Below, in pieces: positions 49,557-54,327 of a stretch of 64,000 bases of DNA; the stretch's first letter is position 1; every line of letters begins with the position of its first letter. Source of the stretch: Escherichia coli (GTDB lineage: Bacteria; Pseudomonadota; Gammaproteobacteria; Enterobacterales; Enterobacteriaceae); the NCBI RefSeq assembly GCF_051903065.1, contig NZ_CP178438.1; one strand, written 5' to 3'. The position numbers and the translations under genes are program-made. The notes beneath the pieces are model-generated. The model searched no databases. It was not told the DNA's origin and saw only the letters and a list, made by a program, of their open reading frames with translations.

Positions 49557-49744
49557 TGACCATCAGCGATATCATTGAAATTATTGTCGTTTGCGCACTG
49601 ATATTTTTCCCGCTGGGCTATCTGGCGCGGCACTCTTTGCGACGCATTCGCGACACCTTACGTTTGTTCTTTGCTAAACCTCGTTATGTTAAACCGGCTG
49701 GGACGTTACGCCGCACGGAAAAAGCCAGGGCAACCAAAAAATGA
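49553..49744 (+). CDS. bcsF: Cellulose biosynthesis small membrane protein BcsF
   Basis: 63 aa with one TM helix; ATGA overlaps with bcsE and bcsG. Confidence 0.8.
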
Positions 49745-51420
49745 CTCAATTTACGCAAAATACCGCCATGCCTTCTTCCCTCTGGCAATACTGGCGCGGC
49801 CTTTCCGGCTGGAACTTCTATTTTCTGGTTAAGTTCGGCCTGTTGTGGGCGGGATATCTTAACTTCCATCCGCTCCTCAATTTGGTGTTTGCCGCGTTTC
49901 TGCTGATGCCCATTCCGCGCTACAGCCTGCATCGCTTGCGCCACTGGATTGCCCTGCCGATCGGCTTTGCTTTGTTCTGGCATGACACCTGGTTGCCTGG
50001 CCCGGAAAGCATAATGAGCCAGGGTTCGCAGGTGGCGGGGTTCAGTACCGATTATTTAATCGACCTTGTCACACGCTTTATTAACTGGCAGATGATTGGG
50101 GCCATTTTTGTTTTATTAGTGGCCTGGTTATTCCTGTCACAATGGATTCGCATTACCGTTTTTGTGGTTGCCATTCTGCTGTGGCTGAACGTACTTACCC
50201 TGGCGGGACCAAGTTTCTCCTTGTGGCCAGCCGGTCAACCGACGACCACTGTAACAACGACGGGTGGTAACGCAGCGGCAACCGTTGCGGCGACGGGTGG
50301 CGCACCGGTAGTGGGTGATATGCCCGCACAAACTGCACCGCCAACAACGGCGAACCTTAACGCCTGGCTGAATAATTTCTATAACGCGGAGGCGAAACGT
50401 AAATCGATCTTCCCGTCTTCGCTGCCCGCTGATGCTCAGCCATTTGAACTACTGGTGATTAATATTTGTTCGCTTTCCTGGTCGGATATTGAAGCCGCCG
50501 GGTTGATGTCGCATCCGCTGTGGTCGCATTTCGATATTGAGTTCAAGAACTTTAACTCCGCCACCTCCTACAGTGGCCCGGCGGCGATCCGTTTACTGCG
50601 TGCCAGCTGCGGGCAGACTTCGCACACTAATCTGTATCAACCGGCAAATAACGACTGCTATCTGTTTGATAACCTGTCGAAACTGGGCTTTACCCAGCAC
50701 CTGATGATGGGACATAACGGCCAGTTCGGCGGTTTTTTGAAAGAAGTTCGCGAAAATGGCGGCATGCAGAGCGAATTGATGGATCAAACAAATCTGCCGG
50801 TTATTTTGCTGGGCTTTGATGGTTCGCCGGTTTATGACGATACCGCCGTGCTTAACCGCTGGCTGGACGTTACCGAAAAAGATAAAAACAGCCGTAGTGC
50901 CACGTTCTACAACACGCTTCCACTGAATGACGGCAACCATTATCCGGGCGTCAGCAAAACAGCGGATTACAAAGCGCGGGCGCAGAAATTCTTTGATGAA
51001 CTGGACGCCTTCTTTACTGAACTGGAGAAATCGGGTCGTAAAGTGATGGTGGTCGTGGTGCCGGAACACGGTGGCGCGCTGAAGGGCGACAGAATGCAGG
51101 TATCTGGCCTACGTGATATCCCTAGCCCGTCTATCACCGACGTCCCCGTTGGGGTGAAATTCTTCGGCATGAAGGCACCACATCAGGGGGCACCGATTGT
51201 CATCGACCAACCGAGCAGCTTCCTGGCTATCTCCGATCTGGTGGTTCGCGTTCTTGATGGCAAGATTTTCACCGAAAACAATGTTGACTGGAAAAAACTC
51301 ACCAGTGGGTTGCCACAAACAGCACCGGTCTCCGAGAACTCAAATGCAGTAGTTATTCAATACCAGGATAAACCGTACGTTCGCCTGAACGGCGGCGACT
51401 GGGTGCCTTACCCGCAGTAA
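49741..51420 (+). CDS. bcsG: Cellulose phosphoethanolamine transferase BcsG
   Basis: 559 aa; N-terminal membrane domain, C-terminal sulfatase-like domain. Confidence 0.9.
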
Positions 51421-51425
51421 GCACG

Positions 51426-51456
51426 AAAAAGGCCGCAGAGTTTCACCTCTGCGGCC
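51426..51456 (-). terminator. Rho-independent terminator of ldr copy 1 (also ends bcsG region)
   Basis: Minus strand: GGCCGCAGAG-gtgaaa-CTCTGCGGCC followed by TTTTT. Confidence 0.6.
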
Positions 51457-51506
51457 TGATCCGGGCGCAAATTGCCATTACGGCAGCCTGACGCCCGCAT
51501 GACACG

Positions 51507-51614
51507 TTACTTCCGTTTGTTCAGCCAGTTCACGATCATACTGGCAAGAATGCCAGCAATGACCGGAGCCGCTAAATCATGCCAGAAGGCCATGCCCAGC
51601 TCTGCGAGCGTCAT
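51507..51614 (-). CDS. ldrD: Ldr-family type I toxin peptide, copy 1 (35 aa)
   Basis: MTLAELGMAFWHDLAAPVIAGILASMIVNWLNKRK; one hydrophobic helix with a basic C-terminus, as I recall for the E. coli Ldr toxin family. Confidence 0.8.
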   Translation of the reverse strand: MTLAELGMAFWHDLAAPVIAGILASMIVNWLNKRK

Positions 51615-51662
51615 ATAGCCGCCTGTGTTGTAATGACAACGTTTCGCGGCTATTCTTGTATT

Positions 51663-51728
51663 GTTTGGATGCAAGAATGGCCCCCGTGATGTTGTCAGGT
51701 GCATACCTGCAACGTGCGGGGGTTTTCT
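51663..51728 (+). ncRNA. rdlD: Rdl antisense RNA, copy 1 (approximate)
   Basis: Opposite strand about 50 nt upstream of the ldr ATG; sigma70-like promoter TTGTAA-17-TATTCT at 51628-51656; ends in hairpin CCCCCG...CGGGGG plus TTTT at 51723-51726. Boundaries inferred. Confidence 0.5.
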
Positions 51729-51908
51729 CTCTCCAGCAACCAATACCACCAGGGATTAAGCCCCCGCAACATTGCGCCTCACCGGAACCCTTCCGGCTTG
51801 CCGCTGATTCTACGACTGTTTTTCTGTTCCGGAATCCGTCACGTCTTCACTCTGTGCTGCGCATTCCGCAGAATATTATCCGCTTGCAACCGTTGCATTT
51901 TTCTTACG

Positions 51909-51939
51909 AAAAAGGCCGCAGAGTTTCACCCCTGCGGCC
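51909..51939 (-). terminator. Rho-independent terminator of ldr copy 2
   Basis: Same hairpin plus T-run as copy 1. Confidence 0.6.
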
Positions 51940-51989
51940 TGGTCCGGGCGCAAATTGCCATTACGGCAGCCTGACGCCCGCATGACACG

Positions 51990-52097
51990 TTACTTCCGCT
52001 TGTTCAGCCAGTTCACGATCATACTGGCAAGAATGTCATCAATGACCGGAGACGCTAAATCATGCCAGAAGGCCATGCCCAGCTCTGCGAGCGTCAT
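51990..52097 (-). CDS. Ldr-family toxin peptide, copy 2 (variant, 35 aa)
   Basis: MTLAELGMAFWHDLASPVIDDILASMIVNWLNKRK; differs from copies 1 and 3 at three residues (A to S, A to D, G to D) from four clustered nucleotide changes. Confidence 0.75.
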   Translation of the reverse strand: MTLAELGMAFWHDLASPVIDDILASMIVNWLNKRK

Positions 52098-52145
52098 ATA
52101 GCCGCCTGTGTTGTAATGACAACGTTTCGCGGCTATTCTTGTATT

Positions 52146-52211
52146 GTTTGGATGCAAGAATGGCCCCCGTGATGTTGTCAGGTGCATACCTGCAACGTGC
52201 GGGGGTTTTCT
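52146..52211 (+). ncRNA. Rdl antisense RNA, copy 2 (approximate)
   Basis: Same promoter and terminator-like hairpin as copy 1, shifted by one repeat unit. Confidence 0.45.
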
Positions 52212-52391
52212 CTCTCCAGCAACCAATGCCACCAGGGATTAAGCCCCCGCAACATTGCGCCTCACCGGAATCCTTCCGGCTTGACGCTGATTCTACGACT
52301 GTTTTTCTGTTCCGGAATCCGTCACGTCTTCACTCTGTGCTGCGCATTCCGCAGAATATTATCCGCTTGCAACCGTTGCATTTTTCTTACG

Positions 52392-52422
52392 AAAAAGGCC
52401 GCAGAGTTTCACCCCTGCGGCC
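52392..52422 (-). terminator. Rho-independent terminator of ldr copy 3
   Basis: Same hairpin plus T-run. Confidence 0.6.
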
Positions 52423-52472
52423 TGGTCCGGGCGCAAATTGCCATTACGGCAGCCTGACGCCCGCATGACACG

Positions 52473-52580
52473 TTACTTCCGCTTGTTCAGCCAGTTCACG
52501 ATCATACTGGCAAGAATACCAGCAATGACCGGAGCCGCTAAATCATGCCAGAAGGCCATGCCCAGCTCTGCGAGCGTCAT
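52473..52580 (-). CDS. Ldr-family toxin peptide, copy 3 (35 aa)
   Basis: Peptide identical to copy 1; the 5'-UTR region differs from copies 1 and 2. Confidence 0.8.
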   Translation of the reverse strand: MTLAELGMAFWHDLAAPVIAGILASMIVNWLNKRK

Positions 52581-52628
52581 ATAGCCGCCTGTGTTGTAAT
52601 GGCAACGTTTCGCGGCTATTCTTGAGTG

Positions 52629-52694
52629 GTCTAGGTTCAAGATTAGCCCCCGTGGTGTTGTCAGGTGCATACCTGCAACGTGCGGGGGTTTTCT
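52629..52694 (+). ncRNA. Rdl antisense RNA, copy 3 (approximate, divergent 5' part)
   Basis: Promoter and 3' hairpin conserved, but the first ~25 nt (gagtggtctaggttcaagattagccc) differ from copies 1 and 2 (gtattgtttggatgcaagaatggccc). Confidence 0.45.
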
Positions 52695-53055
52695 CTCTCC
52701 AGCAACCAATGCCACCAGGGTTAAAGCCCCCGCAACATTGCGCCTCACCGGAACCCTTCCGGCTTGCCGCTGATTTTACGATTGCTTTTTACTGTCAGCA
52801 CCCTGCAATCTTCCTCATTGCGTGATGCCTTCCAGCTTAATTTCTTAATTTGCAATAGTTGCAGTTCATATCCGGGCTGACTCCAGACTGGTAGTGAAAT
52901 GCGCAATTTTGTAGAATTGCGCCTCCTCGCGACCTCCCCAGTGAATCTGTTGCCTCATTTTTTACATACTGCGTATTCGACTTCTCCACCTGTTGCGCAA
53001 GAGAAACTGGGTTTATTCATTTTTGCGAGGCCGACTTCTTTCTGGACAGGACTTT

Positions 53056-54327
53056 ATGCAGCACAACACACTACCGAAACACGATCAGAAATTGCCGTTT
53101 ACACGCTACGACTTCGGCTGGGTTTTATTATGCATAGGCATGGCGATTGGTGCCGGAACCGTGCTGATGCCGGTACAAATTGGCTTGAAGGGAATTTGGG
53201 TATTTATTACCGCAGCGATCATTGCTTATCCTGCCACCTGGGTAGTGCAGGACATTTATTTAAAAACCCTTTCTGAAAGCGATTCCTGTAATGACTACAC
53301 CGATATTATCAGTCATTACCTGGGGAAGAACTGGGGAATTTTCCTCGGGGTTATCTACTTTTTGATGATTATCCACGGGATTTTTATCTACTCTCTCTCC
53401 GTGGTTTTCGACAGCGCCTCGTACCTGAAAACCTTCGGTTTAACCGATGCCGATCTTTCACAATCTCTACTTTATAAAGTCGCCATTTTCGCCGTACTGG
53501 TGGCGATTGCGTCTGGTGGTGAACGATTACTGTTTAAGATTTCTGGGCCAATGGTGGTGGTCAAAGTAGGGATTATTGTCGTGTTCGGTTTTGCGATGAT
53601 CCCGCACTGGAATTTCGCCAATATAACCGCCTTCCCGCAAGCCTCCGTCTTTTTCCGCGATGTCCTGCTTACCATTCCATTTTGCTTCTTTTCTGCGGTA
53701 TTTATTCAGGTACTTAACCCAATGAATATTGCCTATCGTAAACGGGAAGCAGATAAAGTACTGGCAACCCGGCTCGCGCTGCGTACCCACCGAATTAGTT
53801 ATATCACGCTCATCGCGGTGATACTGTTTTTTGCCTTTTCGTTTACCTTCTCAATTAGCCACGAAGAAGCCGTTTCTGCCTTTGAACAAAATATCTCGGC
53901 ACTGGCACTGGCCGCGCAGGTGATCCCTGGACATATCATTCATATCACCTCTACGGTGCTGAATATCTTTGCCGTACTGACCGCATTCTTTGGCATTTAT
54001 CTCGGTTTCCACGAGGCCATTAAAGGCATTATTCTCAATCTGTTAAGCCGAATTATTGATACCAAGAAAATTAACTCACGCATGCTGACTCTGGCGATCT
54101 GCGCTTTTATCGTCATTACGTTGACGATTTGGGTTTCGTTTCGTGTATCGGTGCTGGTGTTCTTTCAGTTGGGAAGCCCGTTATATGGCATTGTGTCGTG
54201 CCTCATTCCGTTTTTCCTGATCTATAAAGTCGCACAACTGGAAAAACTTCGCGGATTTAAAGCCTGGCTGATTCTGCTTTACGGCATTTTGCTATGCTTG
54301 TCGCCACTGTTGAAGCTGATTGAGTAA
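53056..54327 (+). CDS. yhjV: Amino-acid permease-like inner membrane transporter YhjV
   Basis: 423 aa from [34 protein letters not shown]; multi-pass membrane protein. Confidence 0.9.

Follow-up and report, generated by a model that had tools for sequence, protein, structure and literature searches.

The window (the whole stretch of Escherichia coli DNA that was analysed; 64,000 nucleotides) carries three head-to-tail ldr/rdl (LDR) units of 483 bp in the interval between bcsG (49741-51420, plus strand) and yhjV (53057-54327, plus strand; 423 amino acids as annotated). The two flanking genes were identified from their ORFs and from the annotation of an identical locus, and the interval corresponds to the LDR-D locus of E. 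coli. Every unit is composed of a 35-codon ldr ORF, encoded on the minus strand with a long 5' UTR and an intrinsic terminator, and of an rdlD-type antisense RNA gene, which lies upstream of this ORF on the plus strand. Triple arrays at this locus were annotated in nearly all of the best-matching complete genomes listed.

The translations of the ldr ORFs on the minus strand placed copy 1 in the bcsG-proximal unit (51507-51614) and copy 3 in the yhjV-proximal unit (52473-52580), and both encode the canonical peptide, MTLAELGMAFWHDLAAPVIAGILASMIVNWLNKRK. Copy 2 (51990-52097, minus strand; 35 codons plus stop) lies in unit 2, which was delimited by unit alignment (51904-52386, minus strand). It encodes a peptide identical to WP_072025054.1, containing DLASPVIDDILA, with the replacements A16S, A20D and G21D (the allele is hereafter called SDD). 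The rdl genes were recognised by the Rfam rdlD model RF01813 (gathering score 50), at 51663-51728 in unit 1 (82.9 bits), 52146-52211 in unit 2 (82.9 bits) and 52629-52694 in unit 3 (89.2 bits), all on the plus strand. The rdl of unit 2 is intact, and its sequence is the same as in unit 1.

Unit 2 thus has the arrangement of an Ldr/Rdl type I toxin-antitoxin unit: it is one of the long direct repeats, about 0.5 kb each, of a known LDR locus, and its cis-encoded Rdl antisense RNA overlaps the ldr 5' UTR. The parts serving expression and control of copy 2, namely the upstream region, the 5' UTR, SD/AUG, the cis-antisense Rdl and the terminator (an 11-pair stem followed by TTTTT, 51913-51940, minus strand), are intact, and the alignment of units 1 and 2 revealed no further damage to the ORF and UTR of unit 2. 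No consensus promoter for ldr was found by promoter scan, and the transcription start used for folding was derived from a TAGAAT box.

Three further features of the units were recorded. The ldr frame is open for 45 to 56 codons upstream of the ATG, through the rdl-antisense region, in all three units (51507-51749, 51990-52232 and 52473-52748, minus strand); a leader ORF, ldrX, was proposed by Gerdes and Wagner, as cited in PMC4147584. The ldr 5' UTRs (51612-51765, 52095-52248 and 52578-52731, minus strand) matched the Rfam sok model RF01794 below threshold, at 24.5-29.7 bits where the gathering score is 59, which would fit a hok/sok-like organisation of ldr/rdl. An ORF of 48 amino acids antisense to copy 2 (51955-52101, plus strand), without a family match, was treated as spurious.

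The copy-2 substitutions and their expected effect on the peptide

The ORF translations bore out the reading LASPVIDDILA in copy 2, as opposed to LAAPVIAGILA in copies 1 and 3, given in an earlier note on this DNA. That note had counted four nucleotide changes within about 20 bp, altering three residues. The three residues stand, and the nucleotide count has to be corrected to three, within 17 bp: ORF nt 46 G>T (window position 52052), nt 59 C>A (52039) and nt 62 G>A (52036), all non-synonymous and private to copy 2 (52036-52052 in the copy alignment, minus strand). The fourth difference, at ORF nt 63 (52035), is synonymous (GGC/GGT) and sets copy 3 apart from the other two. Unit 2 has otherwise only two private changes (52284 and 52271), both close to the point where the ldr mRNA is inferred to start, and the presence of at least three of the five private changes of a 483-bp unit within 17 bp has a probability of about 0.03. 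One of the two outlying changes sits in the loop of a CCGGAA/TTCCGG hairpin; both travel with the SDD allele in triple arrays and are absent from the single-copy SDD loci.

The altered residues A16, A20 and G21 belong to the near-invariant DLAAPxxAG core of Ldr. A survey of about 52 distinct peptides from six genera (Escherichia, Citrobacter, Klebsiella, Kluyvera, Pseudocitrobacter and Salmonella) showed W-[HDQ]-D-L-A-A-P to be nearly invariant and A16 to be invariant, with A or V at position 20 and G at position 21 (S in three peptides); no charged residue other than those of SDD was found between positions 14 and 28 in this survey. Among 88 distinct E. coli-type Ldr cores, SDD alone has D at positions 20 and 21. 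A few rare alleles of this set are charged between positions 14 and 28, each on one or two contigs, and only the A15E and A16D variants have an acidic residue there.

Copy 2 nonetheless retains the features by which an Ldr peptide is recognised: the 35-residue ORF, W11, H12-D13, W30 and the basic C-terminus (KRK). It matched the Pfam model PF13940 (Ldr_toxin) over its full length (positions 1-35 of 35; 81.8 bits, E-value 3.4e-23), about 11 bits lower than the canonical copy (93.1 bits). By structural features, copy 2 is a standard Ldr/Rdl member in every respect save one: the uninterrupted hydrophobic transmembrane helix with a PXXXG motif (P17...G21), characteristic of Ldr/Fst toxins, is lost through the replacement of both A20 and G21 by D. 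In NCBIfam, no match to an Ldr model was found for either peptide, and the Fst model gave 13.8 bits for the canonical peptide (cut-off 26) and no match for the SDD peptide.

Several other non-canonical ldr alleles are frequent (P0120, P0093, P0116 and P0094), indicating that motif-altering alleles segregate in natural populations. Non-canonical forms include an allele with V18I, G21S, M26L and W30S (99 contigs), a Shigella allele with A9T and P17L (13 contigs), an allele with a PV duplication inside the motif, and N-terminally shortened gene calls of 30 residues (245 contigs).

The Fst/Ldr superfamily shares a PXXXG motif, which is present in the Ldr toxins (Weaver 2020, PMC7472228), and mutagenesis of Fst has shown the P and G of the motif, together with the hydrophobicity of the helix, to be essential for toxicity (PMC7472228). 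LdrD and LdrA are single-pass inner-membrane toxins (PMC8309996; PMC12643268). P17-x-x-x-G21 of Ldr corresponds to PXXXG, G21 being the motif glycine. On a helical wheel, D13, A16, P17, A20, G21 and A24 fall within an arc of 140 degrees, on which all three substitutions lie, and this arc may represent a small-xxx-small face of the kind used in helix packing. With the scale values of Hessa 2005, the sum for residues 14-31 rose from 2.43 to 9.29 kcal/mol (+6.9), and with those of the Wimley-White octanol scale (charged Asp) from -6.19 to -0.60 kcal/mol over the same residues (+5.6).

A mechanism can be proposed on this basis. The substitutions would strike the helix on its small-residue side, formed by A16/A20/A24 and P17/G21/S25 together with D13, destroying the PXXXG glycine and placing two carboxylates at mid-membrane, and the SDD peptide would for these reasons be expected to insert or pack poorly. 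Since toxicity in Fst requires the motif P and G as well as a hydrophobic helix, both scale sums are less favourable and the Pfam score is lower, the SDD peptide is, on balance, probably non-toxic or strongly attenuated; this judgement draws on homology and physical chemistry. The suggestion of the earlier note that this copy may be attenuated is thereby partly supported: the computational evidence (conserved core, PXXXG glycine, hydrophobicity and Pfam score) is all in agreement, the attenuation itself being deduced from it. As to the other suggestion of that note, different selection, the lineage of the carriers is too young for dN/dS. As the rest of the unit is undamaged and its rdl is the same as that of unit 1, unit 2 should still supply an Rdl able to pair with the unit-1 mRNA, and we infer that it acts as a dead toxin gene combined with a working antitoxin gene.

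Four considerations temper the proposed attenuation. The Fst result is carried over to Ldr by homology only, and a search of the literature found no Ldr point mutants or mutagenesis. If both Asp residues were protonated, the octanol-scale penalty would disappear, making insertion physically possible. The ORF is open and identical on 135 contigs, as would be expected of a functional gene; in so young a lineage, however, decay would not yet show. Finally, the changes lie non-randomly on one face of the helix, a pattern that might be due not to loss but to selection for a new property.

In a first alternative the substitutions are nearly neutral, the SDD peptide still inserting, with its Asp residues protonated or hydrogen-bonded to each other or within an oligomer, and remaining toxic. 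The retention of ORF, SD, Rdl and terminator and the end-to-end match to the Pfam Ldr_toxin model are consistent with this, TisB and other type I toxins tolerate charged residues in their helices, and with neutral Asp residues the octanol-scale cost is similar to that of the wild type. We nevertheless consider it unlikely: the cytoplasmic pH is far above the pKa of Asp, the motif glycine is essential in Fst, and acidic residues at positions 14-28 are otherwise limited to the A15E and A16D variants of E. coli, with none in the rest of the six-genus survey.

Predicted folding of the ldr mRNA

The copy-2 ldr mRNA was predicted to form a long rod, which begins 40 nt before the AUG and ends 85 nt past the stop codon (51905-52137, minus strand), and equivalent rods were predicted for the other two mRNAs (51422-51654 and 52388-52620, minus strand). 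The apex of the rod is a UUCU loop at codons 22-23, and SD/AUG is predicted to pair with the 3' UTR just past the stop codon. The copy-2 mRNA is predicted to be stable and highly folded, with SD/AUG sequestered, and it has an intrinsic terminator. The rod of copy 1 had a minimum free energy (MFE) of -117.6 kcal/mol (z = -8.0), as opposed to -103.8 kcal/mol (z = -5.1) for that of copy 2, in which the apex is weaker.

The axis of the rod, at ORF nt 65-66, is unchanged in divergent ldr loci. When the copy-1 structure was imposed on 42 sequences from six genera, 85.6% of cells were paired, against 36-47% in slid controls, and 27 pairs were changed on both sides, against 13-20 in controls; for the apical part of the rod alone, 79.5% were paired, against 27-42%, these counts, as support for the inner rod, being biased in favour of a structure derived from one member of the alignment. 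RNAalifold recovered only the basal clamp and the terminator from the 233-nt alignment, and did not recover the apical hairpin from the 72-nt ORF segment. Because the rod folds the whole ORF and is kept across loci, the first half of the ldr coding sequence appears to be constrained to pair with the second half.

The three substitutions all lie on paired bases in the 5' arm, near the apex. They break the pairs 46-87, 59-74 and 62-71, which were paired in 42, 31 and 42, respectively, of the 42 family sequences. The local hairpin was weakened from -28.4 to -15.9 kcal/mol, and the reversion of the three bases changed the MFE of the whole copy-2 mRNA from -165.9 to -178.4 kcal/mol, a gain of 12.5 kcal/mol. 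The basal SD/AUG clamp was predicted to be unaffected, so little effect on translational control is expected.

These results bear on a second alternative, acting at the RNA level, in which the changes were kept because they loosen the apex of the rod, with consequences for mRNA stability, processing or translation, the amino-acid changes being a by-product. The position of all three changes on paired bases, the weakening of the local hairpin, the shift in z-score between copies 1 and 2 and the conservation of the rod would all agree with such an effect. However, about three quarters of the mRNA is paired, so that hits in a stem are unremarkable, and none of the three changes is compensated. 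Moreover, synonymous or conservative routes to an equal destabilisation were available and were not taken, and the SD/AUG clamp is left as it was. We therefore regard this alternative as quite improbable.

Distribution and origin of the SDD allele

The exact SDD peptide was found on 135 contigs. An 81-nt stretch around the changes was 100% identical in three of 5,426 complete E. coli genomes (about 0.06%), with carriers from meat (China) and human faeces (Ecuador); NZ_CP083585.1 is an example of a complete genome with the allele. The remaining complete genomes had at most 96.3% identity over this stretch, and therefore none of them carries just one or two of the three changes. In nine carrier loci the flanking sequences were the same as those of the window or differed from them by one to three bases in 4.4 kb, whereas the flanks of the next closest complete genome differed by 1.2%, which argues for a single origin in a single lineage.

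The earlier note described the allele as that of the middle copy, which is correct for the window and does not extend to other strains, in some of which the allele is the sole copy. Three unit backgrounds were distinguished: unit 2 as in the window; a unit 2 that is mosaic in the region where rdl starts (L001, L002 and L006); and a lone unit whose upstream region is that of the yhjV-proximal unit, SDD being the only ldr between bcsG and yhjV (L003, L004, L005, L007 and L008). Of 24 carrier contigs read, about 13 had the single-copy arrangement and 11 the triple one. Repeat collapse is unlikely to account for the single-unit loci, four of which lie on contigs of 4.9-5.4 Mb. The occurrence of SDD in several unit backgrounds and array types indicates that it went through several events of unequal crossing-over or conversion. 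SDD arose once and outlived several array rearrangements, including contraction to one copy. Copy 2 is accordingly a real natural variant, restricted to one lineage, of a type I toxin of the LdrD kind.

The number of LDR copies between bcsG and yhjV ranged from one to four among E. coli strains, with four units at L061, L062, L064 and L069 and two at L063, L065, L066 and L070. Judging by the mosaic relationship among the units, unequal crossing-over and conversion outpace point mutation at this locus. Two oddities of the collection were encountered. An E. coli-type ldr locus in a "Bacillus sp." assembly (L023; NZ_JABWSY010000055.1, 503 bp, coverage 0.66) is most likely a contamination, and the grouping of a glycosyltransferase-like protein of 380 residues (P0003) with the 35-residue SDD peptide in a 90% cluster is evidently a clustering artefact.

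No donor was found for the mutated stretch TCTCCGGTCATTGATGA on either strand of the 64-kb window, the best matches being 11-mers over one or two of the sites, at chance level. The mutated bases are not covered by any direct or inverted repeat of at least 7 nt inside the 483-bp unit, and the SDD patch was absent from 41 loci from other species. Quasi-palindrome correction was considered and rejected: the Asp changes create GTCAT-TG-ATGAC (only 5+2+5) and leave the third change unexplained, and the mutations break a larger native hairpin instead of perfecting it.

Single-change alleles occur at the same locus, in arrays of one to four units and mostly on other flanking haplotypes: G21D alone on 5 contigs, A20D alone on 4-5 and A16S alone on 1-2. 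They have several independent origins, from GAC or GAT and GGC or GGT codon contexts, and their frequency is at the background level of the many sporadic ldr variants. No double combination of the SDD changes was found in the collection. The absence of double intermediates, and of partial alleles from the complete genomes, would fit a single simultaneous event. Against such an event stands the occurrence, on the same haplotype, of A20D alone at L067 (GCA_053739595.1; allele at L067:3001-3108), known from one short-read assembly. This allele lies in a unit-1/unit-2 hybrid that shares a unit-2 marker, and its locus has no differences from the SDD haplotype in 2,826 bp of yhjV/dppF flank and differs from it at two sites within the 17-bp stretch. 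Either A20D came first, followed by the other two changes, or the L067 allele is the product of patchy conversion. Two changes in 17 bp, compared with none in 2.8 kb, are non-random and point to a coupled mutational event or to selection; as evidence of clustering this comparison is stronger than the probability calculated for the 483-bp unit.

Selection is central to a third alternative, in which SDD is a distinct paralogue with a new function. It might co-assemble with canonical Ldr through the small-residue (small-xxx-small) face and temper it, as a dominant-negative partner, or it might be an acidification-gated toxin, the protonation of D20 and D21 on acidification of the cytoplasm switching on membrane insertion. 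The concentration of the changes on one face would then reflect positive selection. The excess of changes over the A20D-only allele of L067, the location of the three residues in an arc that also holds D13 and P17, and the persistence of the allele through array rearrangements and as sole copy could be read in this way. Coupled multi-nucleotide mutation nevertheless accounts for the clustering equally well, the allele is confined to one young lineage, with its very low frequency among the complete genomes, and the combination has not evolved in parallel elsewhere, making this alternative very unlikely. The least probable explanation, a sequencing or assembly artefact in the window (the earlier note had named errors revealed by resequencing as grounds for refutation), has a negligible probability, as sequencing errors are excluded by the recurrence of the identical allele in independent assemblies (135 contigs, the same 81 nt in three complete genomes, and contigs of 4.9-5.4 Mb).

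Relation to known systems and significance

The closest known system is LdrD/RdlD of E. coli K-12 (LDR-D), with which unit 2 shares the locus, the 35-aa frame, an Rdl antisense RNA in the 5' UTR, the terminator and the mRNA rod. K-12 has one unit at LDR-D and this strain has three. The SDD peptide differs from K-12 LdrD by L3 in place of F3 and by A16S, A20D and G21D, with the loss of the PXXXG glycine and the gain of two acidic residues in the helix core, and has 31 of 35 residues identical to the LdrD chain of PDB structure 5LBJ. Toxicity on overproduction, countered by Rdl, has been shown in the literature for canonical LdrD and LdrA only. None of the other natural motif-altering ldr alleles of E. 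coli and Shigella combines the three SDD changes.

Fst of pAD1 is, like Ldr, a small single-helix toxin with PXXXG, and SDD resembles a natural counterpart of its loss-of-toxicity mutants. Fst differs in being Gram-positive, plasmid-borne and controlled by another RNA mechanism, its mutants are laboratory-made, and its sequence similarity to Ldr is marginal.

The ldr genes are regarded as hok-like in the literature, and it is an established principle that type I toxin mRNAs can sequester the SD through pairing of 5' and 3' parts. In hok/sok, the SD is sequestered by long-distance pairing between the 5' and 3' ends, and SD/AUG of ldr is predicted to be clamped by the 3' UTR; Rdl targets the ldr 5' UTR as Sok does that of hok. 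Unlike hok, ldr has its whole ORF folded on itself, with the apex at codons 22-23; specific steps of processing and activation are known for hok.

Taken together, the comparisons suggest that the toxin encoded by SDD is probably attenuated or dead, within a unit still able to supply Rdl, and that this is a case of ordinary decay. SDD itself is an uncharacterised allele, but the Ldr/Rdl system to which it belongs is well known. The importance of the finding is limited, and no new kind of system is involved. As no Ldr mutagenesis has been published, SDD provides a ready-made natural test of the residues required for toxicity. Strains with SDD as sole copy are likely to be natural LdrD-null strains, and the allele indicates that a tandem array of type I toxins can harbour a copy whose toxin is probably inactive, and can even be reduced to that copy, without losing the antitoxin RNA.
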